Under the pieces are notes generated by a model that saw only the letters and a list, made by a program, of their open reading frames with translations, had not been told where the DNA came from and did no database searches. This document shows positions 25,648 through 48,695 of a stretch of 64,000 nt of DNA, one piece after another; the first letter of the stretch is position 1, and the number at the start of each line of letters is the position of its first letter. Source of the stretch: Bordetella parapertussis (GTDB lineage Bacteria; Pseudomonadota; Gammaproteobacteria; Burkholderiales; Burkholderiaceae_D); contig CAMBFZ010000019.1 in the NCBI GenBank assembly GCA_945866125.1, positions 53 to 64,052 of the forward strand, written 5' to 3'. A program made the position numbers and the translations under genes.

Positions 25648-25649
25648 GA

Positions 25650-31949: not shown

Positions 31950-33179
31950 TTAGCGTGGCGACGACATGCCCAGCATGGTGAAAAAACGCTCGAGCGCGCC
32001 TTCACCGCTGCCCGCTTCCTGGATCAGTTCAGGCAGCGACATCTGTCCCCACCGCACCGCACGCCGGACCAGATAGGGGGTGGGGCTGTGCGGCTCGGTA
32101 GCTTGCAAAAATGCGGCGGCGGCTTCAAGTTGGCGATAGGCGTCCTCGCGACTGCTGAGCACCGCGGCGATCGTTGCGATGTCCTGCGCCTGGTCGACGA
32201 CAGGCGGCGCAGGTACGTCACCTGGCACCGCTGGTACGCCATCTGACGTAAGCAACGCATCCGGTTCAGGAGAAGCGTCAGGCTCTGTTGTAGCGGGCGG
32301 CTCCATAGGTTCCTGTTCCTCCTTGGCAGTCAGGCTGGCAAATTGCCACCAGGGCTTCGCGCCGCCTGATGATACGGGGATTTCTGCAGCCAGACTTTTT
32401 GCGGCCGCCAAAATAGATTCCAACACCGCTCTGACCTGCGCCAAGGAGAGCGAATCGTCGGGGATGAGACTATCAAGACGCTCCGATAAGGCCTTGATAG
32501 AAGTGAGCGCCCCATCGGCCTGACTGGCGACTATTTGTAAAATTTTGGAGTCGCTGGGCTGGATGCTATCGCGAATTGCTTGTCGGTTGGCCCATGTAGG
32601 CGGTGCATCATTTTTTTTGTCGCGCTCTTTGCCACGGTTCTTATCATTCGCTTTGCGCTCGGTCTCACCGACGGGCGTGGTTTCCCAGTCCAGCAAGGTC
32701 ACCGGCATCTCACGCGTAGCGGTAGCCGGCAAGATCAGCACATGCTGCTTCAAGGTGATTGGCAAGGGGCCATTGAGCCAGACAAAAGGCGCGATACGGC
32801 GATCATAATCTCCGTCTTCAATTGCTGGCCAGCCGCTGTTCCAGTAGCGATCGACCATGCCATTGATGAGCGCAAGACCGGCCTGCAGGCCCTCAAGTCG
32901 ATGCAAGCGACTCCACGCGTCGCATAACCAGATAGCGACCTGAAAATCCTTCGAGTCTTCGTCCAGCAAGCGAATGCAAGACGCGGCGACTTCACGCCAA
33001 TCAGCGCGAACGAGCGGACGCTCCCACTCGCCCATCGGCAAAGTCGGATCGTCCTCTTCGCGGGCTTTGCCAAGATCGATAAAAGCACGTTCGTAGCGCA
33101 TCCACCGGCCGGCGGGTGCGTCGCCGGCCAAGGGTTCGAGTAAATCTGCAACGGTCTGATTGAGCGTGAGCTTGGTCAT
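31950..33179 (-). CDS. tssA: Type VI secretion protein TssA (ImpA N-terminal domain family)
   Basis: LLEPLAGDAPAGRWMRYERAFIDLGKAREEDDP...ADWREVAASCIRLLDEDSKDFQVAIWLCDAWSRLHRLEGLQAGL matches the ImpA_N pattern. It abuts the tssM stop. Confidence 0.85.
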   Translation of the reverse strand: MTKLTLNQTVADLLEPLAGDAPAGRWMRYERAFIDLGKAREEDDPTLPMGEWERPLVRADWREVAASCIRLLDEDSKDFQVAIWLCDAWSRLHRLEGLQAGLALINGMVDRYWNSGWPAIEDGDYDRRIAPFVWLNGPLPITLKQHVLILPATATREMPVTLLDWETTPVGETERKANDKNRGKERDKKNDAPPTWANRQAIRDSIQPSDSKILQIVASQADGALTSIKALSERLDSLIPDDSLSLAQVRAVLESILAAAKSLAAEIPVSSGGAKPWWQFASLTAKEEQEPMEPPATTEPDASPEPDALLTSDGVPAVPGDVPAPPVVDQAQDIATIAAVLSSREDAYRQLEAAAAFLQATEPHSPTPYLVRRAVRWGQMSLPELIQEAGSGEGALERFFTMLGMSSPR

Positions 33180-36100
33180 TTATCGATCCAGTGCAGGGGC
33201 ACGATCCGGGAATACTCGCGGCCAGGCAAGCGGCGTCGTTTTTCCCGGCTCAGAAAGGGTCAGGCCGGCAAACACGCGCACGACCTTATCTTTGCCCACG
33301 GGGTCTTTAGGATCGGCGGGGGCAACGGGCAGTTCTAAGCGCAGCAGCTGTGTGCGTGTATCCAACGAATCATCGAGCCGCAGCAATTGAATCATGTCCA
33401 GCAAAGCCCATGGCCCTTCAAAGTGGAAGCTGGCGGTTTTTTTGCTGACAGACAGGAATGGATTATTCGTATCTCCCTGTGGAATCAGCGGCACATCATT
33501 CGCAAAACGCAGCGTCAGCCGCACGCTGGCACCCGGCTTCCAGCGCAAGGGCTTTGGCGGATCGCGCAGTTTGATGGTTTGCTCGCCAATGCTCAAGGAC
33601 CAGTCGATGATTTTATTCCCGCCGATTTCGGCCGCCGTATTAATACGGAATTTGGCCTGCACATCAAAGCCAGCCTGAATGGCAGGATCGGTTGGAAATA
33701 GCGGCGCCATAAATTGACGCACGGCCGCAAACTGCAAAGCGATATCCCGTATCGGCAGGGTTGCACTCTCGGTGCCGAGACTGCGGGCCAGAACCTCTGG
33801 TGACACGGCCGGCAGATGGTTCAGCGCCGCGCTGACTTCAGCGATGTCTGCACTGGCGATTTCATTGTATTCACCGAGCTTGGCTGTCATCGGACGCGAG
33901 CCTGTGAAAGGACGCCGTCCCTTGAGGGCGCGATTAAAATCTGCCGAAAAAACAGCCCATTGATCCACAAAACTCCGGCGATCCAGCGCCACACAACGGC
34001 GCGTAATTACCCGATGCAGATCCTGCTGGCGCTCCGCAAAATAATTGCCTGGCCGGCGTACCGGTTCATGAATTTTAAGCGCAGCCATACAGCTTGGTGC
34101 ATCAAGATCGCGACCCATATCGAGCAAGAAACGCTCAAGTTTGCCCAGACTGCTCTTGGGATCTTTGGCCTTATAGAGTTCGATGTCTGCTGCAATCGCG
34201 GCCCAACGCGTCAGTTCTGGTGTATTGCGGCTCTCCGTGGGGAGTGCAGTGCGGTAGGCCATTGCACGGGTGGCGAGTGCGTCGATTTTGCCAAACTGCC
34301 TGGCAAGATAGTCGGGCAGATCTTGCTGCGTACCCGCGCCAAACACAGACAACATGCCCTTGGTTTCACTGCGCCCGTCGTCCCCATCTGAATCACCCAG
34401 ACTGTAGAGTCGCGCGTTAAGCAGCTCCGCGCTCAATGATTTGAGACGCGCCGACGCATCATTGGCGACAATCGTTTGCAGTGTGTGGAACTGCTCGTCT
34501 TGACCTGTTTCCTTGAGCATCGTGCCGATTTTTTTCAGATGCGCCGAGGTCGCCTCAAAATTTGCATTCTGCGCTAAGCGGTCGTCTGAATGTCCTCCTT
34601 CAGTCGTCTCAATCGTAAACGATTGCGACACGATGTCGACGAGTAGTAGCGAGAATTGATAATCAATTAATTCGCGTACCGATGCCTGCATCATCTGTGG
34701 GAATTTGGGCAAATCGTCAGTAAGATATTTTTTACGTGATTCATTGAGCTTCGCTGCCTTGTCTAGCTTCTCGTTATTCCAGAGGACCAAGGTGCCTTTC
34801 GCTGTAGCGTCGAGGCCATCGCCGACCGTGGTGTGCATAAATGGCTGCTCAATAAAATTATCCAGCGCATTGAGCAAGTTTTCGCGCTCTTTTGAGAGCT
34901 TGAGCGGCGTGCCCTCCACGATGGGGGCTAATGCGCTTTCTAGCTGAGTGCCGCCATTGTATTTAAACAGGGTCGTGAATTCTACTTTCGTTTTGGCGAA
35001 ATTTTCACGAGAATCTAAGCGAATTTTCTCGACGGCTTCCGGGCCAATCAGTTTGAGTTTCGAAAAATCGTGCAGCAGTTTGTCATAGGCGCTACCTGAG
35101 CGCATGTCTAATTGCGTGATCCAAGTGCCATCACCTATATCCAATAAGGCTTTTTGATTTTTGATCGCATCGAGCAGAGCCCGGTAACGGGTCAACATGT
35201 CGGCGCTAGTGGGCATATCGCTGCCGTTGAACATCGTCAGCACCTCATTTTTGGCGTCAATGATCCGCATCTCTGAGGCAATAAGCGCATTTTTTTCGAA
35301 TATTTTTTGGTGCAGCGCGAGCGAACCTTTCAGAAAACTACAACGAGCGGCAAGCGAGATAGCGGACTTATCGATCAATTCAGCGTCATTGATCGAGACT
35401 TTTTTAAACAAAGCGATCGACGCTGTCAGGTCGCCGGGAACATCCGCTCCTAGAGCATCAAGCACTAAGTCATGAATATCGTCCTGGCTTGTTTTTGTTG
35501 GCGTCTTCAAGCTTTGCATTGCCAGCACATTTGTATCAAGTCGCTTCATTTCCGCTAAGAAGCGGGAGAGCATCGTGAACTCGGGCAGGGTCTCGATGTC
35601 AATCGAGGGTTCGGTGTTGAGGTTAAAAGCGCTAGTCGCCGTGCCTGGTGCTGAGCAATTGTCCGCGCCGCCAGCCAGTGTGTTGGACATAGGGTTGAGT
35701 GGCGCACGGGTTAGCTCAGCGGTGCGGCGGTATAAAGATTTTTGAATCGTGCTGACGGCAAGCTCGGCAAACTCTTGTTCGATACGTTTGTATGCCCGTA
35801 AAAATAAATCATCAAATATCGGCCAGGAGCCCGGCATGAACGGGTTGATCGGCCGAGGACTGTCGCTGGTTGGCTTATAGGAGTCGTTAAAGCGTTTAGC
35901 CTGCAGCTGTTCAAGACCAATCATCAGCGATAGCGCCGTTTTGCGATACCACTCGAATTCAATTACCTCTCCTTTGCTACTTGCCTGAGCACGGAACTGG
36001 CGGTCGCGATTGAGACCGTCTATCCCTTCGGCGAGCACGGGGAAAACGCGTTGCAACTGGATCGTTGAGGCAATTAGTCCCACGCTAAAAATCGACAGCA

Positions 36101-37208
36101 CGGCAATCGCCGACCAGCGCGAGATCCGACTCATGATGGGTCTGGCCAACCGTTGCGAATGCGCCGCTCGCGACAGACCGAATTCGGCGAAGACTTTCTT
36201 CTCAATGACGTCCCGCAAAAATACGGGCTCTTGCGTGGCGCCGTAGAGGTACATCCCGCGCAAGAAAAACGGCTCATGATAAGCATTGGCCCGCATGAGT
36301 TCATCGACATAGGTCGACATCCCTTCACGCAATTCGGCCAGTCGGCTCGGTAGCAAAAATAATTCAGAAGGGGAATGCAGCTGGACATCCGAAGCAAACA
36401 ATTCTGCCGACACGGTCGCAACAGATTGCTCCATCTGGTCAAATGCCTGCGTGACCCAATCCGATTGATACAGCATGGTCGGCTGATAGGGCGAGGACCA
36501 GCCCAGCATGCTTTGGCGCATGGATTGGGGCAGGGCGGCGGCAAATTCCGAAAAACACGCAAGGTGTTCACCGCCTGAGATCAGCACATATACCGCAAAG
36601 CGCATTGCGTAGTGGTTTTGCGCAATCCAGATACGACGACTGGCCAGATTGGCACGACGTTTTAATTCTTCGCGACCGGTCGGGCTCTGGTCGAGCAGTA
36701 GGTTAACTGGGATCGAGACAACGATTGAATCTAACGGACGCTGCGGGCGGTAACGACCACAGAGAGCGAGAAAGGCTTCCCAGCTGCGTTCTTCCTGCAG
36801 TTCGCCTTCGGCAGTCAGCGCCGCGTTGGACTCAAGCGAGATGACAATGCCGCGATCGAAAAAATGCCAGTTTGGCGCGTGCGCTTCTTTGTCAATATCA
36901 TGGTCAGGCGCTAACACCCGGGAGATGCCGGCGCGTTCGAGTGCAGACCCGGTACCATCTTCCTTCTCGTGCATCAGCACAACCCAAGGAATATCGTAGC
37001 GCTTGGGGCGGGCTGTGATATTACGCTCAATGAGTTCCACGGCAGACCTGAAAGCATCGCGCATTTGCCCTAGATGCAGCGAGATGCGGCGTGTCGCCTT
37101 ACCCTCATCTTTATCTTTACGCACGCTAAATTTGAGCGCCGAAAAGAGAATCACCAAGGTGACGATGAAAAGAATCGCAATCCAGATGAGTGAGAGCGGG
37201 TTATCCAC
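33180..37208 (-). CDS. tssM: Type VI secretion membrane subunit TssM (IcmF family) with a degenerate Walker A
   Basis: 1342-aa ORF with N-terminal TM helices and IcmF-like central and C-terminal regions. The P-loop position reads IPWVVLMHEKEDGTGSALERAG, with no GxxGxGK(S/T). Confidence 0.85.
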   Translation of the reverse strand: MDNPLSLIWIAILFIVTLVILFSALKFSVRKDKDEGKATRRISLHLGQMRDAFRSAVELIERNITARPKRYDIPWVVLMHEKEDGTGSALERAGISRVLAPDHDIDKEAHAPNWHFFDRGIVISLESNAALTAEGELQEERSWEAFLALCGRYRPQRPLDSIVVSIPVNLLLDQSPTGREELKRRANLASRRIWIAQNHYAMRFAVYVLISGGEHLACFSEFAAALPQSMRQSMLGWSSPYQPTMLYQSDWVTQAFDQMEQSVATVSAELFASDVQLHSPSELFLLPSRLAELREGMSTYVDELMRANAYHEPFFLRGMYLYGATQEPVFLRDVIEKKVFAEFGLSRAAHSQRLARPIMSRISRWSAIAVLSIFSVGLIASTIQLQRVFPVLAEGIDGLNRDRQFRAQASSKGEVIEFEWYRKTALSLMIGLEQLQAKRFNDSYKPTSDSPRPINPFMPGSWPIFDDLFLRAYKRIEQEFAELAVSTIQKSLYRRTAELTRAPLNPMSNTLAGGADNCSAPGTATSAFNLNTEPSIDIETLPEFTMLSRFLAEMKRLDTNVLAMQSLKTPTKTSQDDIHDLVLDALGADVPGDLTASIALFKKVSINDAELIDKSAISLAARCSFLKGSLALHQKIFEKNALIASEMRIIDAKNEVLTMFNGSDMPTSADMLTRYRALLDAIKNQKALLDIGDGTWITQLDMRSGSAYDKLLHDFSKLKLIGPEAVEKIRLDSRENFAKTKVEFTTLFKYNGGTQLESALAPIVEGTPLKLSKERENLLNALDNFIEQPFMHTTVGDGLDATAKGTLVLWNNEKLDKAAKLNESRKKYLTDDLPKFPQMMQASVRELIDYQFSLLLVDIVSQSFTIETTEGGHSDDRLAQNANFEATSAHLKKIGTMLKETGQDEQFHTLQTIVANDASARLKSLSAELLNARLYSLGDSDGDDGRSETKGMLSVFGAGTQQDLPDYLARQFGKIDALATRAMAYRTALPTESRNTPELTRWAAIAADIELYKAKDPKSSLGKLERFLLDMGRDLDAPSCMAALKIHEPVRRPGNYFAERQQDLHRVITRRCVALDRRSFVDQWAVFSADFNRALKGRRPFTGSRPMTAKLGEYNEIASADIAEVSAALNHLPAVSPEVLARSLGTESATLPIRDIALQFAAVRQFMAPLFPTDPAIQAGFDVQAKFRINTAAEIGGNKIIDWSLSIGEQTIKLRDPPKPLRWKPGASVRLTLRFANDVPLIPQGDTNNPFLSVSKKTASFHFEGPWALLDMIQLLRLDDSLDTRTQLLRLELPVAPADPKDPVGKDKVVRVFAGLTLSEPGKTTPLAWPRVFPDRAPALDR

Positions 37209-38076
37209 GGCTTACCTCACTGGAAACAGGGCGCTCAATCTTTGCCGGCGCAGCAGGATCAAGCGCCCGGCGCAGCGGTGACGAGCTCCAGCGCCAAAGG
37301 ATCTGAGACAAAATCAACAACGCCAGCAGCGCGCCAATAAAGATCAGGCTTGACTGACTAAAACGGAAAAATCGGACAGGCTCCATATTGGAGAGCACGC
37401 TCTGGTAGGCCTGCTCCGAGATAACGCGATCGGCAAAAGCAGGTTGCTCAGCTAAATCTGATTTTAATAACGGTTCACGACGATAGATTTTTCGGTACAG
37501 CGCGTCGCGAATGGGGATCAGCGAGTCATCCGCATCTGGCCCACGAAAACGACCTTGAAACCCAATGGCTACTGCAAATAAATATAGCGGCGCGAGTTGT
37601 TGTGCACGGCTCGAGGTATCACCAAGCAGCTGCGAAATGCGATCGAAAATTTTATCGCCGGCGAGGCTCGACCCGAACAAGCGGGTCTCAACCAGGTAGC
37701 TCGTGAAAAAAGGCCGGCCACTCCAGGCCTCACTGAGCAGTAACTCGTCTGCCATCGCCGCTTTCAGGTAGCGTAATTCATCCACAAGCATCAGTTCTGC
37801 CTGACTTGCTTCTCGCGAAAACTGCAGGTCTTGCGCTTCCGCGATGCGAGCGATGTTGTCCGACATTTTTTTCGCAGCATTGTTAGCTTCTTTGGATACG
37901 GTCGGGTCGGACAGGTCAAGATCACCCGGCGCTGCATGGACAAGCTGCTGCCTGACTTCATCAATAAATTCCCGGAACTGACGTAACAGCAACGACTCCG
38001 CCGTACCAGCAACGATGAGCTTGGCACGGGGCAGCGATTGTCTGCGTTCCTTTTCCGGGCGAGTAAGTATTCCCAT
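37201..38076 (-). CDS. tssL: Type VI secretion protein TssL (DotU family), no peptidoglycan-binding extension
   Basis: It has the DotU-like motif LYLFAVAIGFQGRFRG and a single C-terminal TM (LIFIGALLALLILSQILW) followed by only ~25 residues. It overlaps the tssM start by 8 nt. Confidence 0.82.
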   Translation of the reverse strand: MGILTRPEKERRQSLPRAKLIVAGTAESLLLRQFREFIDEVRQQLVHAAPGDLDLSDPTVSKEANNAAKKMSDNIARIAEAQDLQFSREASQAELMLVDELRYLKAAMADELLLSEAWSGRPFFTSYLVETRLFGSSLAGDKIFDRISQLLGDTSSRAQQLAPLYLFAVAIGFQGRFRGPDADDSLIPIRDALYRKIYRREPLLKSDLAEQPAFADRVISEQAYQSVLSNMEPVRFFRFSQSSLIFIGALLALLILSQILWRWSSSPLRRALDPAAPAKIERPVSSEVSRG

Positions 38077-38090
38077 TGCGCTCTACTTTT

Positions 38091-39413
38091 CTAGGCCGTT
38101 GTACCGCGAATAAACAAGACGATCCCGCTTGGCTTGACAATGGCACCGGCGCGACCGGAAGGTCCAATGACGAGCCGGCTCTCCGGTTTTAGCAGCTCGG
38201 CACCGGGCAGGATTTCATACAGCATCACGCCAGGTAGACTACGCAGTTGTAATTCCTCGGCGGCGAGTATGTGGGTGCGCTTCAGACCCAGAATACGTTT
38301 TTCCCGATGCTCGGCGAAGGCGTGGTTGGCACCAATGACGGCGCTCTCCATCCAATCTTCGATCTCGGTGGCAGATTGGCCTTTGACCCCGATGATCAGA
38401 CGGTTTTTGATCCACTCGGGCTGCATCGCCAACTCATACACCCCATTGGTCCAGGCGAAGCCGACTTCACGATAATCCTGGCTCACTTCACTCAGGTTTT
38501 CTTCAATCTCTTTGAGTAAAGGTACAAAGCTGCGGTGCGGGTGCCCATGATCATAGGGCGGCGGCAACGTGGGCAAGGTGCCAGGCCGCAGCAGCGATAA
38601 CGGCCCCAGTAGGTTGCACAGCGCTAGATAGAGCGGGTAGGGACCGAGCGAAGGACTTTGTAGCAGCGCTTCAAGCCCCGGCATGGCGGGCACTAGGCAA
38701 CTCAAGCGATGCATGATCAGTGGACGTTCAGCGCGCTGCTCTGTGGCGGACATGCCAGCGGCCTGGCGCGCAAGAAAAGCGGCCTTACTCCGCAGCGATA
38801 CGACTAAATGGCGCACCGTGTTGAGTAATTCGGGCGACGCTGCGACATCCAGCAATTCGGGCAGCTCTGGCCCGAGCTTCATCACGCCGTCATCTTCGAT
38901 CACGCTGCCCAAGCGCATGCTGACGTAGGCGGCTGACGGCACATCGCCCGCAGCGAGGCTTAAGTTATGGACCAGCCGTGGAATATCCGCCGGCATCGCG
39001 TCTGACACTTCGTCTTGCACTGGCGAGGAAGCGACAGATATAAAGCGGGCGGGCAGTGCTGGTTGCGTCATCTGACGCGAGACTGGCAGACAAAGGTAAA
39101 TAGGGAGCGGACCTTCGGCTAGGGTCGACGTAAAATCATCAAGACGCATCGACAATTCGATGGCGGCAGGATCATTGGCATCGAGGTGCACTGCGGTGCC
39201 GTCAGGCAGCAAGGCATCGAGCTCAAGCACGCGCAACAATCCTGATGCGAGCAGGCCAAGATCAAATTTAAGACGCTTGACCCCCCAGCTGTAAGGCGTT
39301 GTGGCCAGAGTGTGCCAAGCGATTAAGCTATCGACGCGTGCGGACTCTACTTGAAAATGCTGCGGCGAGAGCATCATGCCCTCGTGCCACTGTATCCGAT
39401 CGGGGGATTTCAT
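38091..39413 (-). CDS. tssK: Type VI secretion baseplate subunit TssK
   Basis: It carries the IQWHEGMMLSPQHFQ signature near the N-terminus. The ORF opens at a TTG (39455), but the first in-frame ATG (39413) follows AAAGGGA, so the start is uncertain. Confidence 0.85.
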   Translation of the reverse strand: MKSPDRIQWHEGMMLSPQHFQVESARVDSLIAWHTLATTPYSWGVKRLKFDLGLLASGLLRVLELDALLPDGTAVHLDANDPAAIELSMRLDDFTSTLAEGPLPIYLCLPVSRQMTQPALPARFISVASSPVQDEVSDAMPADIPRLVHNLSLAAGDVPSAAYVSMRLGSVIEDDGVMKLGPELPELLDVAASPELLNTVRHLVVSLRSKAAFLARQAAGMSATEQRAERPLIMHRLSCLVPAMPGLEALLQSPSLGPYPLYLALCNLLGPLSLLRPGTLPTLPPPYDHGHPHRSFVPLLKEIEENLSEVSQDYREVGFAWTNGVYELAMQPEWIKNRLIIGVKGQSATEIEDWMESAVIGANHAFAEHREKRILGLKRTHILAAEELQLRSLPGVMLYEILPGAELLKPESRLVIGPSGRAGAIVKPSGIVLFIRGTTA

Positions 39414-39457
39414 AGAACGCGTCCCTTTGTGTTCGTTGTTTTCTTCATGGTGCAATT

Positions 39458-39940
39458 CTATTTCTGCTGAGCGCCAGCGGAGAAATCGTTGGCCTCGAAT
39501 TCTAATCGAATGCGACCTTCTAACTCATCAAGCCGAACCCGGTGTTCGCCCTGGGCAAAATAATCAGCAAAGCCAATAACGGCAAATACCTGCTTCTCGC
39601 AGAAGGGTTTGCCCGGCACGGTCTTGGACTCGCCTGGCGCTAACTCCCAGCTCCGGCTATGTAAGGCATTGGGATAAGTTTTGAGCAAACTATCTTTTGC
39701 CGCAAACCAGTCTGCTGCTTTCATCCCGAGTATTTTGTCAACCAAGGCCGGCTCATAAATTGTGACGATATCGACCGCTAACGGGAAATTCATATTGATC
39801 GCCGGCGGCATATTAAACGTGACGGTATCCCACTTGAGCGCCTTCCCGGGCGGAACGACAGCGTTTTTTACGCTTTGAAAAACACTACAGCCTACTAACA
39901 GCAGACCGGCGAGTAGTGTGATTGCTGTGCGCATTGTCAT
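39458..39940 (-). CDS. tssJ: Type VI secretion lipoprotein TssJ
   Basis: MTMRTAITLLAGLLLVGCSVF contains a lipobox. At 160 aa and positioned upstream of tssK, tssL and tssM, it fits TssJ. Confidence 0.75.
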   Translation of the reverse strand: MTMRTAITLLAGLLLVGCSVFQSVKNAVVPPGKALKWDTVTFNMPPAINMNFPLAVDIVTIYEPALVDKILGMKAADWFAAKDSLLKTYPNALHSRSWELAPGESKTVPGKPFCEKQVFAVIGFADYFAQGEHRVRLDELEGRIRLEFEANDFSAGAQQK

Positions 39941-40140
39941 GGCTTGCTGGCGGGCGCTGGCGCCGATTTTTCAGTGGCTGTCGTCGCGACCATTTGGGGA
40001 GTCTGTTTTTCACTCGTCTCTATCAGCACCGAGCGCCGTCCTATTTCAAAACCAAACAACACCAGCAATGCCATGGCCAACAACACGCAGATAACGCAAA
40101 TGGTAATCAGGCGCGGCGTAAGAGAAAGATTGAGATTCAT
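39937..40140 (-). CDS. 67-aa single-pass membrane protein, translationally coupled between the DUF4280 gene and tssJ
   Basis: ATGA overlaps occur at both ends (40137-40140 and 39937-39940). The sequence is MNLNLSLTPRLITICVICVLLAMALLVLFGF... with a polar A/P/T-rich tail. Confidence 0.55.
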   Translation of the reverse strand: MNLNLSLTPRLITICVICVLLAMALLVLFGFEIGRRSVLIETSEKQTPQMVATTATEKSAPAPASKP

Positions 40141-40526
40141 GCGACCTCCACCGTCATTTGTCCCGGCATTGAAATTTCGATGGAGCCCGCCCACATGCAG
40201 TCGAGCTTGCAGGTGTCTTGCAACGCGGCCATATTGGCGATTTTGACCGTGGGCGAACCCGGGCTCCAGGGTGCGACCGTCATCGGTATGCAGGGCATCG
40301 GCGTCAATGCGCCAAGCGCGGCCGCAGTAGCTGCCGCCACCATTGGATTGGCCATCGATTTGCACATGCCGAAGGGCAGAATATTGAGCATCGGAATATT
40401 GTCCATCACGGTTGCCGCAGGCATGCCCGTCATGACCGCGTTAGCCGGCAATACCATCAAGGTACCGGGCGCCAGTCCCATTGAGCATTTGAGCATTGCA
40501 CCACCGCAGACTTGTTTGGGCATCAT
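40137..40526 (-). CDS. DUF4280 (PAAR-like) domain protein
   Basis: MMPKQVCGGAMLKCSMGLAPGTLMVLP...NILPFGMCKSMANPMVAAATAAALGALTPMPCIPMTVAPWSPGSPTVKI...CMWAGSIEISMPGQ matches the conserved DUF4280 pattern. Confidence 0.85.
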   Translation of the reverse strand: MMPKQVCGGAMLKCSMGLAPGTLMVLPANAVMTGMPAATVMDNIPMLNILPFGMCKSMANPMVAAATAAALGALTPMPCIPMTVAPWSPGSPTVKIANMAALQDTCKLDCMWAGSIEISMPGQMTVEVA

Positions 40527-41146
40527 TACCCCCTAAAAATGGATTCGATCCGACCGGCCAGCGTGGTTTTGCCATCTGCATCAGCCGGTCGTCCTTTTTG
40601 ATCAAAACGCTCTATGTCGCCCACGCGCTGACCTTTTTCGTACTGTGTGCGCTCCATCAGATTGCCGTTTTTCCAATAGTTGCAAAGCGCACCATCGAGC
40701 AGATCATTTTTATACGCGGCGCTTTGCGATACATCGCCTTCGCTGGTGAAGTCCTCGGTCAGGCCTTCACGCAGACCCGCCTGGTAACGCGCAATCCGTA
40801 TCAATTGTCCTTGCGAAAAATATCGCGCCTCGCCTTGCAGGCGACCCGCTTCATAAAATAGCTCTGCTGCGATCATGCCAGGCGGGCCGTAAATCACGGC
40901 TGGCCCATCGAGGACATCATTTTTATATTGCTGCTGCATCAGCAGGCCATGTGCTGAATAAATCGCGCAGCTGCCATTGCGCTTACCACCCGCATAGTGC
41001 GTCTTTTGTTCCAAATTCCCGTTCGCGTCGTAGCTTAAGCTTTCGCCATCGAGCTGCCCTTCACGCAAGACCAGCTCGTGACGCGGGTTACCGTCATCAC
41101 CATGGATGGTCAGGTTGTCGGTTTCAGTGGCGGTGGTGTCGGTCAT
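40526..41146 (-). CDS. MORN-repeat variant (YwqK-like) protein
   Basis: 206-aa ORF with repeated G-x-(x)-Y-x-x-(N/G)-G-x-L units (YDANGNLEQKTHYAGGKRNG, NYWKNGNLMERTQYEKGQRVG). It starts 4 nt after the vgrG stop and shares 1 nt with the DUF4280 start. Confidence 0.75.
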   Translation of the reverse strand: MTDTTATETDNLTIHGDDGNPRHELVLREGQLDGESLSYDANGNLEQKTHYAGGKRNGSCAIYSAHGLLMQQQYKNDVLDGPAVIYGPPGMIAAELFYEAGRLQGEARYFSQGQLIRIARYQAGLREGLTEDFTSEGDVSQSAAYKNDLLDGALCNYWKNGNLMERTQYEKGQRVGDIERFDQKGRPADADGKTTLAGRIESIFRG

Positions 41147-41150
41147 GTCA

Positions 41151-43250
41151 TTAATTGATTTTTACCATGCCGCCCTTGATGGTCGTTGTGCCACCACCGT
41201 CCATATCATGCGATGCGGATGCCTTGCTCGCGATCGACAATGCTTCGATCTTGAGACTAGCGCCCGACTTAATGCTAAACGCCGCCGCTGATTCTGCAGA
41301 GAGCGCGTCGCCTGACTTTATCGTCATGGCGGCCCCGGAACTAATCGACATGGCCGCACCGGATTTAAAGGTAATTTTGCCGGCCACATCAAAGCTCAGA
41401 TCACCATCAACTTTTAATGTGACGTTGCCGGTGATGGTTTGCGTCATATCTTTGGTGACTGACAGCGCCAGATTGCCCGCCACGCTGTGCGTCAGGTTCG
41501 CGCCATTGGTGTGCGTTTCGTCGCCATCAACAGTTACTTTGCGGGTGGCAGCAACGGTGTGCGTTTCATTACCGGCACTCACTGCGATGCTTCGGTCGCC
41601 TTTGGTGATGGTGCGGGCTTCATTGCCTTCTTCCACCAGCAGGGTGCGGTTACCTTTTTTGATGGTACGTGTCTCATTGCCCAGATAAAGCGTGCTGTCG
41701 AGATCGTTTTCGATATCGACTTTCATGTCTTTTTGCGCATGAAAATAAAACTGTTCGCTGCCTTGCTTATCTTCCATGCGCATCTCGTTACCATCGATGC
41801 GGTCGCTGCTATCTTTCACATTGCCAGATTTGGTATTGCCGTCGCCGGTTTTGGTTGGGCGCGACCGGATCACGCTCTGCGTTTGCATTGCCGGCAGAGC
41901 GACCGGCGTGGCACGCTCGCCGTTATAAACCGAGCCTGTGATGATGGGACGGTTTGGATCGCCATCAATGTAGCTGACGATCACTTCTTGCCCGATGCGC
42001 GGAATGAACATGCTGCCCCAGCCGTTGCCGGCCCAGGTTTGCGACACGCGTACCCAGCAGGAGCTGGTGTCGTCTTTAGCCGCGGACTGATCCCAGTAAA
42101 ACTTTACCTTGATACGTCCCAGCGCATCAGTCCAGATTTCTTCGCCATCAGGCCCGACGACTAAAGCGGATTGGCTGCCGGCCACGACGGGTCGGGCCGT
42201 GCGGCGAGGTGGACGGAATACAGTTGTTGCCGGATGCGCTTCGAAATGGTTGGTATAGCTCTCGTTATCTGCCCGATGGGTAACGGCACGTAGCGCATAG
42301 CGGATGTTGAGCTTGGCATTGGCGTGCTCGGTCAGACTAAACGCACCACCGGCGGTCAAGGTGCAGCACAGGCTGTCACCCACGGCAGTCAAGGCATCAG
42401 CCTGACCCTCTTGCAGACGCAGTCCGGTGGATTTTGTGCCATCGGCGACGATCTGATAGTGGCCGGGATACTCATAAATACTGCCGGTGACGATCTTGCC
42501 GCTGCCAGCCGTTGAGCTGGCCGCCAAGGCAGTACTCGGTGTGTTGTAAGCGTAGTCGGATGCGGTGAAGGTTTGGGTTACCAGCTGGCCGCTTGATTCG
42601 AACCGTAGCACGCTGTCGGCCCATTCGCGGGTATCGTTGCGGCCGCGGAAAATCAAGGCGCTCGCCTGCGGGCAATCGACATGCGCGCTCGCGCTGTCGG
42701 CTAGCACCAGCGTGTGGCTGCTCGCGGTGAAGGTGAAAAAATAAAAAATGCCTTCTTCTTCCATTAAGCGCGACACAAAATCTAAGGGCGATTCATCGTA
42801 TTGCACGCAGTATTCACGTACTGCATAGGTGCCCTGCAATTTTTTCTCGACCGTGATGCTGTAGCGGCTCAGCACCGCATCGATGATGTCAGTAGCGCTC
42901 TGATTTTGAAAAATGACCCGGTCGCGGCTGAGTGAAAGCAGCCACAAGGCCGGCACCATCTCGGCGGTGTAATACGCAAACTGTGCGTCCAGACCGGATT
43001 GCGTAAAGCGGGCAATCACGCCGTGAAAAAAACGTTCTACCCCAGTGGCGTGACGCACCGTGACGGTGACGGTCGTGCCAACGATGGTCGTCGGATCGAT
43101 ACTGCTGTTGGACGACTTCATGGCCAGGTTAAAGCGAAACGGCTGAGATAAAGTTTCGGTGCCGGTGAAGCTGTCTAAGAGCAGTACGTCAGCGCCAAGC
43201 GAGGTCGTCATCGACAGCATTGCTTTGTCTTGTGTGAAGCCGTCTCTCAT
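41151..43250 (-). CDS. vgrG: Type VI secretion spike protein VgrG (TssI)
   Basis: 699-aa ORF. It has the N-terminal LLLDSFTGTETLSQPFRFNLAMKS, the gp27/gp5-like core IPRIGQEVIVSYIDGDPNRPIITGSVYN, a C-terminal beta-helix repeat, and ends GGMVKIN. Confidence 0.92.
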   Translation of the reverse strand: MRDGFTQDKAMLSMTTSLGADVLLLDSFTGTETLSQPFRFNLAMKSSNSSIDPTTIVGTTVTVTVRHATGVERFFHGVIARFTQSGLDAQFAYYTAEMVPALWLLSLSRDRVIFQNQSATDIIDAVLSRYSITVEKKLQGTYAVREYCVQYDESPLDFVSRLMEEEGIFYFFTFTASSHTLVLADSASAHVDCPQASALIFRGRNDTREWADSVLRFESSGQLVTQTFTASDYAYNTPSTALAASSTAGSGKIVTGSIYEYPGHYQIVADGTKSTGLRLQEGQADALTAVGDSLCCTLTAGGAFSLTEHANAKLNIRYALRAVTHRADNESYTNHFEAHPATTVFRPPRRTARPVVAGSQSALVVGPDGEEIWTDALGRIKVKFYWDQSAAKDDTSSCWVRVSQTWAGNGWGSMFIPRIGQEVIVSYIDGDPNRPIITGSVYNGERATPVALPAMQTQSVIRSRPTKTGDGNTKSGNVKDSSDRIDGNEMRMEDKQGSEQFYFHAQKDMKVDIENDLDSTLYLGNETRTIKKGNRTLLVEEGNEARTITKGDRSIAVSAGNETHTVAATRKVTVDGDETHTNGANLTHSVAGNLALSVTKDMTQTITGNVTLKVDGDLSFDVAGKITFKSGAAMSISSGAAMTIKSGDALSAESAAAFSIKSGASLKIEALSIASKASASHDMDGGGTTTIKGGMVKIN

Positions 43251-45907
43251 GATGCGGCCTCCGCATCAGTGAGCGTAAAACAAAATTCGCCTTGCGCATC
43301 GAGGCTGAGGTGCACTGCGCTAAACGGCGCGTGCGCCGCAATGCGCTGCAACACTGCCGAGGCCAGCTCAGGCAATAGCGTCTGCGTGACGATATGATCA
43401 ATATTGCGGGCGCCGCTTTCGACTTCGGTACAACGCGCAGCAATCGCACTGCTCACTGACGCATCCCAGATAAATTGCGCACCATGATTGGACAGCACAC
43501 GGGCGGCGAGTTGCGCCAGCTTGAGCCCGACAATTCGCTGTATCTGCGCGTCTGCCATCGGACGATACGGCACGATGACCACGCGGCCTAAAAAGGCGCT
43601 CGGAAATTGTTCAAGCAGAGCAGGGCGCAAGGCCTCAACAACGGCAGCGGTGCTGGCTGCGGGCTGGCGCGTGCAAGTGTCAACGACTACATCTTGTGCC
43701 GCGTTCGAGGTCAGCAAGATGAGCGTATTACGGAAATCAATCAGCGTGCCCTCGGCGTCTTCCATCACGCCCTTGTCGAACACCTGGAAAAATAATTCCA
43801 GCACATCCGGATGCGCTTTTTCCATTTCGTCGAGCAGCACCAGACTGTAGGGTTGGCGCCGCACTGCCTCGGTTAATACGCCCCCTTTGCCATAGCCGAC
43901 ATAGCCGGGTGGCGCACCTTTGAGGCCAGAGACCGAATGGGCTTCCTGGAATTCGGACATATTGACCGTGACCATATGCTGCTGGCCGCCAAAGAGCAGA
44001 TCAGCGAGCTGGCACGCGGTTTCGGTTTTGCCCACGCCGCTGGGGCCGACTAGCAAAAATACACCGACCGGTTTGGAGGGATCGTCAAGGCCGGCCCGAT
44101 AGGTCCGGATGCGGCGGGTGATGGTGTCGAGCGCGTCGTCTTGTCCGACGATGCGCTCACGTAGCCGGTCGTGCAGATTTAGCACTGCCTGGTGTTCGTC
44201 GTCGAGCATGCGGCCCACCGGGATCCCGGTCCAGCTGGCAATCACCGCAGCGACGCTACCCGCGTCGACGGCTGCCGGCACCAGCGCGCGCTCGCCTTGC
44301 AACGCGCGTAGTTCAGCTTCAAGCCGCTTGAGTTCGGTACTGTCGTCAGCTGCGGCGCTGCCGCTGCCGCTGTCAGTGCCGTGATCGGCATGCGCGCGGG
44401 TCTTTGCGCGGCACGCAACAATCGCCTCCACCAAACCGCGTTCGGCAGACAGCCGCGCTTGCAGGGTTTCCTGTTCGGCCTTGGCGGCTTGCAGCGCGGC
44501 TTGTGCATCGGCAATCGCCTGGCGGTGGTCTTGTCCGGCGGCCGCTTCGCGTTGATGAATGCGCAGCTGATGACCAATGTCTTCAATGCGCCGCGTAATA
44601 GATTCAATCCCTTCAGGCACGCCGGCCTGGGCCTGCGCGACGCGTGCGCAGGCGGTATCCAAAATACTGATCGCTTTGTCGGGCAACTGGCGCCCAGTGA
44701 TGAAGCGGTGGGACAGGCGCACCGCTTCGCGCACGGCGATATCAAGGATTTGCACGTTATGGTGGGCTTCCAGGCTCTCGACTATGCCGCGCAACATATC
44801 CGTGGCGACTGCTTCCGTGGGTTCGGCGACCTTGACTACCTGAAATCGGCGCGCCAGAGCCGGATCACGCTCGACATATTTTTTGTACTCGGCCCAGGTC
44901 GTCGCGGCAATGGTGCGCAACTCGCCGCGTGCCAAGGCCGGCTTGAGCAGATTGGCTGCATCACCGGCGCCTTCGCTGCCACCGGCACCGATCAGCTGAT
45001 GGGCTTCATCAATGAACAGCACTATGGGCGTGACCGACGCTTTGACTTCGGCGATGACCATCTTCAAACGGTTTTCAAATTCACCTTTGACGCCGGCGCC
45101 TGCTTGCAGCAAGCCTAAATCGAGCATGCGTACTGAAATGCCTTGCAGCGCAGGCGGCACGTCGCCCCGTACGATTTTTTGTGCAAAGCCCTCTACCACG
45201 GCAGTTTTGCCGACCCCGGCCTCACCGGTCAGAATGGGATTGTTTTGCCGTCTACGCAGCAAAATTTCGATTAGCTGCCGTACTTCCAGGTCGCGGCCAC
45301 GAATGGTGTCGAACTTGCCGGCAGCGGCCAAGGCCGTGAGGTCAATAGTGAATTGATCAAGCGCCGGCGTGGTCGCTTTGCTGTGTCGCGTGGCCGCGGC
45401 CGGGGTGCTTGCGGTGGCTGCGCTGGCTTTGCCTTCTTCGAGCCCGGCCACGAGGGTGGGTAGCGTGTTACGCAAGGCCTCACGCGGGATTTGTAACAGG
45501 CTCGGTGCGGAGTCGACGAGCAGACCGCGCAGTGTGTCGCTCTCTAGCGCAGCGAGCAAAATGGCACCGGAACGTATCTGCTGCTCGCCCAGCGCCACCG
45601 AGCTAATGACCCAGGCCTGTTCAAGCAAGGCGGGTACTTGATTTGAGATGACGGGTGTTCGGCCGTTGCCGCGTTTGAACCCATCAAGTGCGGTTTGCAG
45701 TTGCGTCGTGACGCGCTCTGGCGCGATGGCGAAGTGATCCAGGATCACCCGCAGATCGCTTGCCGGGGTTTCCAGCAAACGAATAAGAAGGTGCTCGGGG
45801 TCGACGCTGAAATGCGTTTGCTGTGCGCACAGCTCGGCGGCACGCTCCATCGCGTCGCGACAGGGGCGGTTGAGCCGCAGAATCAGGGTGCGCAGCTCGC
45901 TACTCAT
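43247..45907 (-). CDS. clpV: Type VI secretion ATPase TssH (ClpV)
   Basis: 886-aa ORF with two AAA+ modules (GEAGVGKTAVVEG and LLVGPSGVGKTE, plus Walker B LFIDEAH and LLDEMEKAH). Confidence 0.93.
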   Translation of the reverse strand: MSSELRTLILRLNRPCRDAMERAAELCAQQTHFSVDPEHLLIRLLETPASDLRVILDHFAIAPERVTTQLQTALDGFKRGNGRTPVISNQVPALLEQAWVISSVALGEQQIRSGAILLAALESDTLRGLLVDSAPSLLQIPREALRNTLPTLVAGLEEGKASAATASTPAAATRHSKATTPALDQFTIDLTALAAAGKFDTIRGRDLEVRQLIEILLRRRQNNPILTGEAGVGKTAVVEGFAQKIVRGDVPPALQGISVRMLDLGLLQAGAGVKGEFENRLKMVIAEVKASVTPIVLFIDEAHQLIGAGGSEGAGDAANLLKPALARGELRTIAATTWAEYKKYVERDPALARRFQVVKVAEPTEAVATDMLRGIVESLEAHHNVQILDIAVREAVRLSHRFITGRQLPDKAISILDTACARVAQAQAGVPEGIESITRRIEDIGHQLRIHQREAAAGQDHRQAIADAQAALQAAKAEQETLQARLSAERGLVEAIVACRAKTRAHADHGTDSGSGSAAADDSTELKRLEAELRALQGERALVPAAVDAGSVAAVIASWTGIPVGRMLDDEHQAVLNLHDRLRERIVGQDDALDTITRRIRTYRAGLDDPSKPVGVFLLVGPSGVGKTETACQLADLLFGGQQHMVTVNMSEFQEAHSVSGLKGAPPGYVGYGKGGVLTEAVRRQPYSLVLLDEMEKAHPDVLELFFQVFDKGVMEDAEGTLIDFRNTLILLTSNAAQDVVVDTCTRQPAASTAAVVEALRPALLEQFPSAFLGRVVIVPYRPMADAQIQRIVGLKLAQLAARVLSNHGAQFIWDASVSSAIAARCTEVESGARNIDHIVTQTLLPELASAVLQRIAAHAPFSAVHLSLDAQGEFCFTLTDAEAAS

Positions 45908-46929
45908 GCGCCACTTGCCTCGAAGCGGAAACGTGAGGGTGTCACACAGCGGGACTTGCCACTGGCTGCCGGGCCCGCCAGCCAGGCCGTCCAGCCTAGC
46001 TGCAATGGCGTGCGCGCCGATAGGCGGGCGGGCGGCAACGCGCTGGCGGCCGGAGTGAGAGCGACCTCAACCTTGGTATTAGCAGGTAAAAAGCGACGCA
46101 CCGACGCGCAAAATCCGGCGTGATCGGCCCCGCCGGGCAACAGGCTTTGTATCCGACTGATGTTCATCTCTTTGCTGCTAAGGCGAATGCCTGCTCCCTG
46201 ATCCCATACTTTTCTTCCTAATGTGGCACTCTGCCCCAGCACCGGTGCGCGACCGAGACTGCCTAAACCGGTCAGTTCATCGTTTTCGATACGGTGCCAG
46301 CCGCCGACAAATTGCTCACCCGTGACGGGCAGGGCAAAGCGATCTGAGAGCATCGTGGTCAAGCCCGCCATCGAGCGCGGAACGCCACCAAGCAGGCCGG
46401 CATGCCGAAGCCAGGGCGTGTGTTTGGTGCTGGACAGCGAGGGCGTAATGCCGAGTGCACACAACGCATCAGTGCATCTTGCCACAGAGGAAGCATTTGG
46501 GGAGCGCCAGCCGAGCCCGATCCGGTGTTTTTTTCTACCTAAATAAAACAGGCTGAGGAAACGATGCTGAAAAATATCGAGAAAATCGGCAGTCGCAAAG
46601 TCTTTGACGCTATTACGTTCCAACAGCATTTCCGTAAACGCCGCCGGCATGGCACCGGCTTGACCGAGCAAAGAGAGCACGGGTGAGGTCAAATGAAAAG
46701 CTTCACCGGTGGCGGCGCCTTCGCGGGCGCTGTAAACATCACTTGATTCAAAGCCGAGCGAGACGCGGCTGCTCAGTCGGACGGCTTCGGTGCTATCGGC
46801 TTGCCCAATTTCGCCAAAGCCACGTGCGACCCCTTCGCGCTCAAGCAAACTGATCGCCTGAAACAGATCAAAGCTCTCCGGTTTGGCCAATAAATTAGCG
46901 AGCAGGCCCTCTTTGACGTTGTCTGACAT
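45904..46929 (-). CDS. tssG: Type VI secretion baseplate subunit TssG
   Basis: ORF 45904..46977. The ATG at 46929 (MSDNVKEGLLANLLAKPESFDLFQAISLLER) shares 1 nt with the tssF stop. The FxLFQAxxLLE signature is present. Confidence 0.85.
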   Translation of the reverse strand: MSDNVKEGLLANLLAKPESFDLFQAISLLEREGVARGFGEIGQADSTEAVRLSSRVSLGFESSDVYSAREGAATGEAFHLTSPVLSLLGQAGAMPAAFTEMLLERNSVKDFATADFLDIFQHRFLSLFYLGRKKHRIGLGWRSPNASSVARCTDALCALGITPSLSSTKHTPWLRHAGLLGGVPRSMAGLTTMLSDRFALPVTGEQFVGGWHRIENDELTGLGSLGRAPVLGQSATLGRKVWDQGAGIRLSSKEMNISRIQSLLPGGADHAGFCASVRRFLPANTKVEVALTPAASALPPARLSARTPLQLGWTAWLAGPAASGKSRCVTPSRFRFEASGA

Positions 46930-48695
46930 TAGACCAGCTCCTGGGTGCCGGAGATCGGTGGCCAGAGAGTCAGGCACTCTTCACCCCGATAAATACCGAG
47001 CTGGACAAAGGAGTTGATGGTCGTGTAGAGCGCGAAAAAGCGCGCCAGTACGGCCGAAAACAAGACGGCCGAGGAGCCGGCAAAGGCATCCGCATCCAAC
47101 TCGAGCCGTACACCGGTGCCACGGCAATAGCCGCGCCATGCATCACCCTGGATGCGCCGTGTGACGCCATGGGCAGACAGACCGGTGATGCCACGTATCT
47201 GTTCGAGGTCGCGGTTATGGTCGGACGCAAACAGCGAGAGCATCTCGCGTAACTGATTGCGGCCGGTTTCGCCACTGACCAGAGAATCGTGACTCAAGGT
47301 GAGCAGCGACGCGAGCCGCCAAATGGTGTCGCCGTCTAGGGGCGGATTGCGCTGGCGCGATGGCTCGGTCACGCAGCGGATGCGCAGGCCGTTTGAAATG
47401 CCTTCGCCTTTTAATCGGGTTTGGGTACTAATCTGCTCGGCTAATCCGCGGTTGGTACACAGCGTGCGGGCATACACCACCGGTGCTGTGGGGCTGCGGC
47501 GGGTGTTGCGCTGATCCACAAAACTCAGGTGCATATCGGTGCCGGAGATATCCCTGCGCAAGCTGCGCTCGCGCCGCGCCGCCCAAAATACGCCTTCGGT
47601 TTCGTCACTGCCCTGGCCCAGAGCAGAAAACTGCGGAATGCTTTGTGGTCGGTCGCTGCCGGGATCTGACGCGGTGACCAGTTCGATCGAATGAATTTCG
47701 GTGATGGCCTCGCGGGCGCGGTCGGCCACCAGCAAAATCTCATGCTGACGATGGTCAATGAGAATCGGTTCGGTGGAACGCGGGAAAAGATTGATTGCGG
47801 CCACGCAGCCAAGCCGAAAATTCTCGGCGCTCAGCGCGCGCAGTTTGCGCGGTACGCCGCCAACATCAAAACGTAGCGTAAAACGCGAGCCCGATAATTT
47901 AGCCGCCCGCAAGCCACTAATATCAAAGAAATGAAATTTGGCCGGAAACGCAAAATATTCCTGCAGCAGGCCATAGGCCGGATGCGCGCCCGGCGCCTGG
48001 GGCAGCAACTGAAAGGCCGCATCAAAGCCGATATTTTTGCAGGATGAGGCGGGCAGGGTGTGCACTACGCCGCGCTCATTTTCAAGGTGGATTGACTTGA
48101 TTTTGGTGGCCAGACATTCATAGAGTGCACCGACCAAAGACCAGTCACCACTCAGATGTACGCGCAGCGTATCAAGCTCTAATTCGGCCAAGTCGGCATC
48201 GTGTTCAGTGGCCACGGTCAAGACCAGCTTACCGTCGTCATCGAGCAGACCTTCTTCAATGCTTAGCGGCCAGAGTGTGGTATCCCAGCCGGTGCGAAAG
48301 CGGCACTCTTCACCGGTATCCGCTTCGGCCACGACGCTGGTGTGACGCGGTATCACGAGACCGGCTGTCACTTTGCCTTGCGCCCCATCCAGGCCAAATT
48401 CGACGATGGTCATCGACGGGATCGGCGCCAGCATGGTCGGGCAGAGATTTTCTAGCAAGCCGTGGGCGACTTGCGGAAATTCGGTATCAAGATCGCGGTG
48501 TACCCGCGCTGCTAAAAAAGCGAACGATTCGATGAGTCGTTCCGTATGAGGATCTTGCGATTCGGTGCCGTGATAATCGAGTCGGCTGGCGACTTTCGGA
48601 TAGCGACGCGCGAAATTCTGCCCTTGCGAACGCAGATAGGCGAGCTCGCGGGCGTAGTAATCAAGCAGATCATTTTCTTTGGTCTTCGATTGCAT
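46929..48695 (-). CDS. tssF: Type VI secretion baseplate subunit TssF
   Basis: 588-aa ORF. LLDYYARELAYLRSQGQNFARRYPKVASRL is the canonical TssF N-terminus. Confidence 0.9.
   Translation of the reverse strand: MQSKTKENDLLDYYARELAYLRSQGQNFARRYPKVASRLDYHGTESQDPHTERLIESFAFLAARVHRDLDTEFPQVAHGLLENLCPTMLAPIPSMTIVEFGLDGAQGKVTAGLVIPRHTSVVAEADTGEECRFRTGWDTTLWPLSIEEGLLDDDGKLVLTVATEHDADLAELELDTLRVHLSGDWSLVGALYECLATKIKSIHLENERGVVHTLPASSCKNIGFDAAFQLLPQAPGAHPAYGLLQEYFAFPAKFHFFDISGLRAAKLSGSRFTLRFDVGGVPRKLRALSAENFRLGCVAAINLFPRSTEPILIDHRQHEILLVADRAREAITEIHSIELVTASDPGSDRPQSIPQFSALGQGSDETEGVFWAARRERSLRRDISGTDMHLSFVDQRNTRRSPTAPVVYARTLCTNRGLAEQISTQTRLKGEGISNGLRIRCVTEPSRQRNPPLDGDTIWRLASLLTLSHDSLVSGETGRNQLREMLSLFASDHNRDLEQIRGITGLSAHGVTRRIQGDAWRGYCRGTGVRLELDADAFAGSSAVLFSAVLARFFALYTTINSFVQLGIYRGEECLTLWPPISGTQELV

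Follow-up and report, generated by a model that had tools for sequence, protein, structure and literature searches.

Between vgrG and the tssJ position of a type VI secretion system (T6SS) operon from Bordetella parapertussis lie three short genes, which encode a 206-amino-acid (aa) protein with MORN repeats, a DUF4280 (PAAR-like) protein and a 67-aa membrane protein. They are found on contig CAMBFZ010000019.1, in a stretch of 64,000 nucleotides (nt) referred to here as the window. Sequence comparisons make it very probable that the MORN protein is a member of the family of TseF and TeoL, T6SS effectors which recruit outer-membrane vesicles (OMVs). By analogy with these effectors we lean towards the view that the module represents a conserved unit of spike and cargo in a group 4A (i4a) T6SS, with a TseF/TeoL-like mechanism. 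The initial annotation of this DNA had proposed that the trio might be an undescribed adaptor/effector/immunity arrangement, with the MORN protein as the only candidate payload or adaptor. Kinship with the secreted effectors TseF and TeoL supports the payload role, while the arrangement is not a new one: the MORN protein falls in a known effector family, and the synteny of vgrG, MORN_2 and PAAR genes has already been published (PMC5379069, PMC8356804). The toxin-less VgrG cargo island may be explained by this known class of non-toxic "public-goods" T6SS effectors.

Family membership of the MORN protein

Reference sequences of the two characterised effectors were obtained by means of published primers. 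The tseF gene was retrieved from a metagenome contig (locus L101) via the published cloning primer ATGGCGGCATCCGGCAAG. The open reading frame (ORF) at this locus encodes 178 aa (MAASGK...AEP), is matched by both primers and is flanked by the C-terminus of VgrG3 and a convergent DUF4280 gene; it matches MORN_2 at 3.6e-16. The 18-mer tseF start primer gave 120 matches in metagenome contigs, mostly by chance with one corresponding to tseF, and none in viral contigs. The exact 23-mer of the tseF deletion primer had no match in metagenome or viral contigs, the L101 site having one mismatch to it. A teoL orthologue was identified in Cupriavidus sp. P-10 (L209:8809-9525) via the published teoL primers, with two mismatches at the start codon and none at the stop.

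TseF aligns with the window MORN protein at 2e-17 by BLASTP and 4e-17 by phmmer (30% identity over 127 aa), and the alignment stays in register through the non-repeat C-terminal tail. The Cupriavidus teoL orthologue gives stronger values (BLASTP 9e-26, phmmer 2e-25, 33% identity over 148 aa), and Bphy_5986 of Paraburkholderia phymatum reaches 3e-28 by phmmer. These similarities, together with the vgrG/PAAR synteny described below, are the reason for assigning the protein to the TseF/TeoL family, and it appears to be an orthologue, in a wide sense, of both TseF and TeoL. General homologue searches returned little: a word-indexed search queried with the MORN protein by itself yielded no more than three near-identical matches and one unrelated Bacteroidota protein, and a search with a 20-sequence MORN profile found only 38 matches, none of them a named TseF. 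Synteny of TseF-family MORN_2 genes with vgrG and PAAR genes was presented earlier in Supplementary Fig. 2 of the TseF study (PMC5379069).

Automatic annotation suggests a different identity, namely that the protein is a YwqK-type immunity protein (antitoxin) for a toxin encoded elsewhere. YwqK antitoxins have the same MORN_2 Pfam repeats, and the name "toxin-antitoxin system YwqK family antitoxin" is given to homologues from P. phymatum and from plasmid records. However, the characterised proteins closest to it are effectors that are secreted, and its scores against generic YwqK proteins are far below those against the TseF/TeoL orthologues. Nor do any toxin genes, whether LXG, deaminase or other, adjoin the gene in the window or in about 40 syntenic loci. 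We rejected the immunity reading on this last point, no toxin being present in any syntenic locus, and regard it as extremely improbable. The "YwqK family antitoxin" annotation appears misleading for such genes inside T6SS clusters.

Fold of the MORN protein

An AlphaFold2 (AF2) model of the MORN protein, built on a 13-sequence alignment, has a predicted local distance difference test score (pLDDT) of 91.8 and consists of 15 β-strands followed by a C-terminal helix at residues 196-205. The top Foldseek matches of this model are MORN1, junctophilin and axonemal MORN proteins, with template modelling scores up to 0.60, and no enzyme or catalytic fold is among the high-ranking matches. A sequence profile search of the PDB with the same protein found only the MORN part of SET7/9. 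The structure prediction proposed in the initial annotation has therefore returned a plain MORN β-sheet and no enzyme fold. Alignment of 20 orthologues, including TseF, shows about 7-8 hairpin repeats of 23 residues with 11 invariant glycines and a short C-terminal helix of consensus LxxRxExxxRG. A Sec signal peptide is not apparent at the N-terminus, as judged by eye and no predictor being used. As modelled, the fold suits a binding or tethering protein and not a toxin.

Gene junctions and conservation of the module

The three genes are linked to vgrG and translationally coupled, and reading of the sequence confirmed all the junctions first reported in the initial annotation. The vgrG stop codon TAA (41151-41153) is separated by a 4-nt spacer, TGAC (41147-41150), from the ATG of the MORN gene. 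The TAA stop of the MORN gene and the ATG of the DUF4280 gene have one A in common (TAATG, 40524-40528), and ATGA overlaps join the DUF4280 stop to the start of the 67-aa ORF (40137-40140) and the stop of the latter to the start of the TssJ-like lipoprotein (39937-39940). Two relatives, L001 and L086, whose DUF4280 proteins are 81-99% identical, have these four genes joined by identical overlaps of 1 and 4 nt. This recurrence in related contigs shows that the arrangement and its coupling are conserved and did not arise by chance. VgrG itself ends in ...GGGTTTIKGGMVKIN and has no C-terminal effector domain; its C-terminus is similar to that of P. aeruginosa VgrG3 in the metagenome contig L101. 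Pfam and NCBIfam scans found no nuclease, lipase, amidase, Rhs, DUF4123, DUF1795 or DUF2169 gene between vgrG and tssK, in agreement with the initial annotation, which had seen no toxin or immunity pair beside the module and had placed the MORN protein outside the known adaptor families; none of the three proteins matches DUF4123, DUF1795 or DUF2169.

Conservation was examined in 80 species-representative DUF4280 loci and a few others obtained by exact protein look-up, the ORFs of which were searched with the window proteins. The MORN gene lies immediately upstream of the DUF4280 gene in 39 of 87 loci, and 31 of these 39 also have the small membrane gene. The order clpV, vgrG, MORN, DUF4280 was found in Oxalobacteraceae metagenome-assembled genomes (MAGs; MORN E-values 1e-43 to 1e-50), which contain the clusters closest to the window, and in Comamonadaceae, Limnohabitans, Polaromonas and Acidovorax (1e-28 to 1e-38). 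It also occurs in Azospirillum, in other alphaproteobacteria and in a Nitrospiraceae MAG, and a tblastn search of plasmid records matched the megaplasmid of P. phymatum and chromids of Azospirillum. The gene order, for which a test of conservation had been proposed, recurs in about 40 more distant loci. The MORN orthologues are tightly linked to T6SS genes, which is not the distribution of an unlinked cytoplasmic housekeeping protein.

With increasing distance from the window, all genes of the cluster lose identity in parallel. Against L086 it is 69% for ClpV, 61% for VgrG, 46% for MORN, 81% for DUF4280, 44% for the small protein, 52% for the TssJ-like protein and 65% for TssK; against P. phymatum the corresponding values are 63, 46, 33, 66, 44, 35 and 47%. 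Across relatives the identity of the MORN protein drops in step with the core genes (82, 46, 33 and 30%). From this parallel decrease the MORN gene appears to have been inherited with the cluster, evolving faster than the core genes, and not to be a swapped-in cassette. The module as a whole is a conserved part of one T6SS lineage, has co-diverged with the core genes and is not a variable cassette of adaptor, effector and immunity genes.

Such strict conservation, together with the coupling to DUF4280, raises the possibility that the MORN protein works chiefly inside the cell as an adaptor, chaperone or structural Tag protein, loading or stabilising the hydrophobic DUF4280 tip on VgrG, and that its release is a by-product of firing. 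The MORN gene always adjoins vgrG and DUF4280, with one nucleotide in common with the start of the latter, and it is kept in betaproteobacterial and alphaproteobacterial clusters, in the Nitrospiraceae MAG and in Pseudomonas whether or not the Pseudomonas quinolone signal (PQS) is made. TseF binds VgrG3 directly (PMC5379069), and the corresponding slot of Burkholderia T6SS-5 is occupied by non-effector Tag proteins, TagA/B-5 being needed for Hcp secretion (PMC6335564). However, the known adaptors (Tap/DUF4123, Eag/DUF1795 and DUF2169) are not secreted, while TseF and TeoL are found in supernatants and on vesicles and have extracellular partners (PMC5379069, PMC8776902). The MORN protein also evolves faster than the core (46% versus 61-81% at equal distance), which is more typical of cargo. 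We consider a mainly intracellular role unlikely, and an adaptor or accessory role and an effector role may coexist.

Variants of the module were seen in several relatives. Genes for an SBP_bac_3 protein and two Na:dicarboxylate symporters lie between the small membrane gene and tssJ in L014:6605-10262, L069:6448-11079 and L088:15300-19400; this insert is found in Comamonadaceae, Polaromonas, Paraburkholderia and Cupriavidus clusters and is absent from the window and its Oxalobacteraceae relatives. The insert of about 4 kb was considered as the missing toxin and rejected, since it encodes a solute-binding protein and dicarboxylate symporters. A second layout is present in Janthinobacterium, Iodobacter and a P. 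aeruginosa-like contig (L074:5935-10323, L081:5989-9780, L101:165-2929), where vgrG is followed by a TseF-like gene (about 175 aa), the DUF4280 gene is convergent and the small membrane gene is missing.

The DUF4280 spike tip

The 129-aa product of the second gene matches the DUF4280 profile (PF14107) over its full length, from position 1 to 109 of 109, and has no extension. More than 7,900 homologues were found, and proteins from many Burkholderiales genera are 65-81% identical; identity to the orthologue of PA2375 is 61%. Four cysteines (C14, C55, C79 and C110) are kept in at least 99% of 88 DUF4280 sequences, and the gene sits one gene away from vgrG, in the position of Bphy_5987. Four conserved cysteines fit the metal-binding PAAR-like cone described for IglG. 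Judged by its sequence the protein is a stand-alone DUF4280 PAAR-like spike tip, and the full-profile match, the conserved cysteines and the vgrG linkage all bear out this part of the initial annotation.

A 204-aa antisense ORF (39922-40536, plus strand) covers both the DUF4280 gene and the gene for the 67-aa protein; nothing supports it as a gene, and it most probably results from the GC-rich coding sequence on the opposite strand. In two Paenibacillus genomes (L019:5989-8260, L024:5980-8280) the DUF4280 gene is directly followed by a gene for a MORN-repeat protein of about 600 aa, and in an uncultured bacterium (L055:2690-6399) a MORN-repeat protein of about 630 aa is encoded about 1.4 kb upstream of DUF4280. 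The pairing of DUF4280 with MORN proteins therefore also exists outside proteobacterial T6SS clusters.

Proposed role of the module

TseF (PA2374) is a protein of 178 aa with three MORN motifs whose gene adjoins vgrG3 (Lin et al. 2017, Nat Commun, PMC5379069). Its secretion depends on the H3-T6SS, it was pulled down with VgrG3 in a glutathione S-transferase assay, and it binds PQS, FptA and OprF; it recruits OMVs for iron uptake, with PQS as the vesicle ligand and FptA and OprF as receptors (PMC5379069). TeoL (Reut_A1725), encoded directly downstream of vgrG1 (Reut_A1726) in a cluster with clpV1 (A1727), hcp1 (A1731) and tssM1 (A1715), is secreted by T6SS1, binds the O-antigen of lipopolysaccharide (LPS) and recruits vesicles through the TonB-dependent receptors CubA and CstR (Li et al. 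2021, ISME J, PMC8776902).

Gene structure, family membership, fold, synteny and co-divergence are observations on the window and its relatives; secretion, VgrG binding and vesicle recruitment were demonstrated for the homologues, from which the same mechanism and ligand might be extended to this organism by analogy. In such a mechanism the spike would be a VgrG trimer capped by the stand-alone DUF4280 PAAR-like cone. The MORN_2 protein would bind VgrG in the cytoplasm and be fired with the spike into the medium, as TseF and TeoL are. There its elongated MORN β-sheet could bridge a surface component of the vesicle and an outer-membrane receptor of the producer, acting as a non-toxic tether, and tethering would bring vesicle cargo such as iron to the cell. 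Since the effector would be non-toxic, no immunity gene is expected. The Burkholderiales character of the cluster would make the O-antigen of LPS a more likely vesicle ligand than PQS.

Several points weigh against this proposal. Identity to the homologues that supply the function is only 30-33%, MORN_2 repeats raise similarity scores between unrelated repeat proteins, and a generic Bacteroidota MORN protein reaches 3e-10 in a small-database phmmer search. TseF and TeoL differ from each other in ligand (PQS versus LPS) and in receptors (PMC5379069, PMC8776902); because the two characterised members already differ in this way, the ligand of the window protein is not predictable, and no ligand-binding residues were found mapped in the TseF/TeoL literature. 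The systems of both effectors are repressed by Fur, but when the T6SS promoter regions of the window (51948-52118 and 52749-52888) were scanned with the 19-bp Fur-box consensus, no site reached 13/19; this is a weak test, with a motif that may not be that of the host. No TonB-dependent receptor gene was seen among the annotated genes of the window. Release of TseF in T6SS mutants is reduced and not abolished (PMC5379069), and the strict conservation and the coupling with DUF4280 fit a structural or adaptor role equally well.

If the proposal holds, the TseF/TeoL class is extended to a further Burkholderiales-type lineage, by a divergent example and not by a new kind of system. The TseF/TeoL-DUF4280 pair, with the small membrane protein in Burkholderiales, would represent a conserved signature of group 4A systems, and the OMV-recruitment model could therefore be tested well beyond Pseudomonas and Cupriavidus.

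The small membrane protein

Profile searches on the three proteins matched MORN_2 and DUF4280, and the 67-aa protein had no Pfam or NCBIfam match. With phmmer, homologues of it were detected at about 35 syntenic loci, that of P. phymatum (6e-06) among them, and their alignment shows a conserved N-terminal MxYxLSLTxR, a transmembrane helix, LGxEiG and then a variable tail rich in proline, alanine and serine. From the charge distribution it is probably an inner-membrane protein with its N-terminus inside and a periplasmic tail. The small gene is absent from the Pseudomonas and alphaproteobacterial loci examined, which still carry MORN and DUF4280, so the protein appears confined to clusters of the Burkholderiales branch. 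Its equivalent is listed in the literature only as a "hypothetical protein" (PMC8356804).

Two roles had been put forward for this protein in the initial annotation. An immunity role finds no support, because the module has no toxin to neutralise. A role as a membrane-complex accessory coupled to TssJ is weakened by the clusters with the transporter insert, in which the small gene stays beside DUF4280, about 4 kb from tssJ. It was also considered that the trio could be a novel adaptor/effector/immunity set in which the 67-aa protein is the immunity protein or the true effector partner. In favour of this, the protein is without a known family, conserved and coupled to the module. However, no part of the module contains a toxic domain, the family of the MORN protein has already been described, and the small gene is not obligatory, being missing from Pseudomonas and alphaproteobacterial versions with MORN and DUF4280. 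The conserved part of the protein is moreover the transmembrane segment, atypical for an effector-binding immunity surface, and a set of this kind is highly unlikely.

The 67-aa protein is the only uncharacterised element of the module. A tentative possibility, which we hold with more doubt than confidence, is that it is an undescribed accessory of Burkholderiales group 4A T6SSs that might dock the spike together with its cargo at the membrane complex or gate TseF/TeoL-type release. A related possibility is that the MORN protein ancestrally chaperones the DUF4280 tip, vesicle tethering being a lineage-specific addition.

Operon organization and genomic surroundings

The module is part of a single T6SS operon on the minus strand, the genes of which are given in Table 1.

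Table 1. Genes of the T6SS operon in the window, in the order of transcription.
Feature	Coordinates	Strand	Evidence
T6SS operon holding the module	31950..51947	-	Pfam and NCBIfam matches
tssB	51947-51366	-	Pfam/NCBIfam
tssC	51335-49833	-	Pfam/NCBIfam
hcp	49770-49216	-	Pfam/NCBIfam
tssE	49171-48695	-	Pfam/NCBIfam
tssF	48695-46929	-	Pfam/NCBIfam
tssG	46977-45904	-	Pfam/NCBIfam
clpV	45907-43247	-	Pfam/NCBIfam
vgrG, spike protein, 699 aa	41151..43250	-	TIGR03361 2.7e-171; Phage_GPD 4.5e-88
MORN_2 repeat protein, probable TseF/TeoL family member, 206 aa	40526..41146	-	Pfam MORN_2 2e-11
Predicted stand-alone DUF4280 PAAR-like spike-tip protein, 129 aa	40137..40526	-	Pfam DUF4280 1.8e-34
Single-pass membrane protein, Bphy_5988 family, 67 aa	39937..40140	-	phmmer and synteny
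TssJ-position outer-membrane lipoprotein, lipobox LLVGC, 160 aa	39458..39940	-	position, signal peptide, lipobox
tssK	39455-38091	-	Pfam/NCBIfam
tssL	38076-37201	-	Pfam/NCBIfam
tssM	37208-33180	-	Pfam/NCBIfam
tssA	33179-31950	-	Pfam/NCBIfam

Only the lipobox of the lipoprotein and the location of its gene ahead of tssK support its assignment as tssJ, the signal peptide being read from the sequence. TssJ was not detected for it by Pfam, NCBIfam or a PDB sequence profile, and TIGR03352 is matched by two of 14 orthologues (E 0.017). A single-sequence AF2 model of the lipoprotein is unusable (pLDDT 36). It may be a very divergent TssJ.

Directly downstream of tssA there is a three-gene set (24715-31734, minus strand) encoding a transglutaminase-N/core and DUF2126 "amidoligase" protein (1127 aa), a circularly permuted ATP-grasp and alpha-E protein (892 aa) and a second transglutaminase-like protein (310 aa). 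A 209-aa ORF without a family lies just upstream of tssB (52119-52748, minus strand), and divergent from it is a gene for a hybrid histidine kinase with HisKA, HATPase_c and receiver domains (52889-54670, plus strand), a candidate local regulator of the T6SS. The T6SS is further flanked by genes for a protein of 965 aa that combines a calpain-type C2 peptidase domain with an RTX repeat and DUF4214, and for two Sel1-repeat proteins (55651-58548, plus strand; 58676-59962, plus strand; 22965-24497, minus strand), which are possible secreted or eukaryote-directed factors.

Comparison with known systems

The cluster is of group 4A (i4a) type as judged by core-gene homology and gene order (ClpV 63%, VgrG 46% and TssK 47% identical to P. 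phymatum); the groups of the reference clusters were taken from PMC8356804 and PMC7970981.

The closest known systems are T6SS1 of C. necator, T6SS-b of P. phymatum and the H3-T6SS of P. aeruginosa, and other systems resemble the window in part. Burkholderia T6SS-5, which is related, has an identical overall order of clpV, vgrG, an accessory slot, a 130-aa PAAR-like gene, tssJ, tssK, tssL and tssM; however, its slot holds pentapeptide-repeat and DUF3540 proteins, and VgrG-5 has its own C-terminal effector domain (PMC6335564). Equivalence of the MORN gene to the Tag proteins of T6SS-5, suggested at first by the shared operon order, was rejected on account of these different slot proteins. Francisella IglG belongs to the same DUF4280 fold family and has conserved cysteines in common with the window protein. 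The latter lacks an IglG-like N-terminal extension and, with a match to the NCBIfam IglG model (3.6e-11) that falls far short of the equivalog cutoff, is not orthologous to IglG.

The H3-T6SS of P. aeruginosa, which also belongs to group 4A, is similar to the window in having a MORN_2 gene beside vgrG and DUF4280, with DUF4280 proteins 61% identical and VgrG C-termini alike. TseF is shorter than the window protein (178 aa) and lacks the first repeats, and its ligand, PQS, is restricted to Pseudomonas and its relatives. In the H3-T6SS the gene for PA2375 is convergent, there is no 67-aa gene and the cluster is split into two divergent operons, whereas the window has a single operon with DUF4280 co-directional. 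Tfe5 of P. fluorescens F113, a protein with a YwqK domain described as a "homologue of TseF", is encoded downstream of vgrG3 with a linked small PAAR gene (PMC7970981).

The TeoL system is a Burkholderiales T6SS with the same gene order and a MORN_2 gene directly after vgrG, and the C-terminal LxxRxExxxRG helix is shared. Compared with the window protein, TeoL-type proteins have about 30 additional residues at their N-terminus. The gene numbering of T6SS1 in C. necator/pinatubonensis JMP134 reproduces the layout of T6SS-b in P. phymatum STM815. In the latter, Bphy_5985-5988 encode VgrG, a "YwqK antitoxin", a PAAR-like protein and a hypothetical protein, and the system is assigned to family i4a (Hug et al. 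2021, PMC8356804); these genes are only listed in that paper. Each of the four has its homologue in the window (1e-178, 3e-28, 5e-49 and 6e-06, respectively), and the operon order is the same except for the insert. The next genes of T6SS-b encode an amino-acid ABC transporter component, two Na:dicarboxylate symporters and a racemase (PMC8356804). Cupriavidus and Paraburkholderia clusters carry a solute-binding protein and two symporters before tssJ, with the racemase reported for P. phymatum, whereas in the window the module leads directly to the tssJ position without them.

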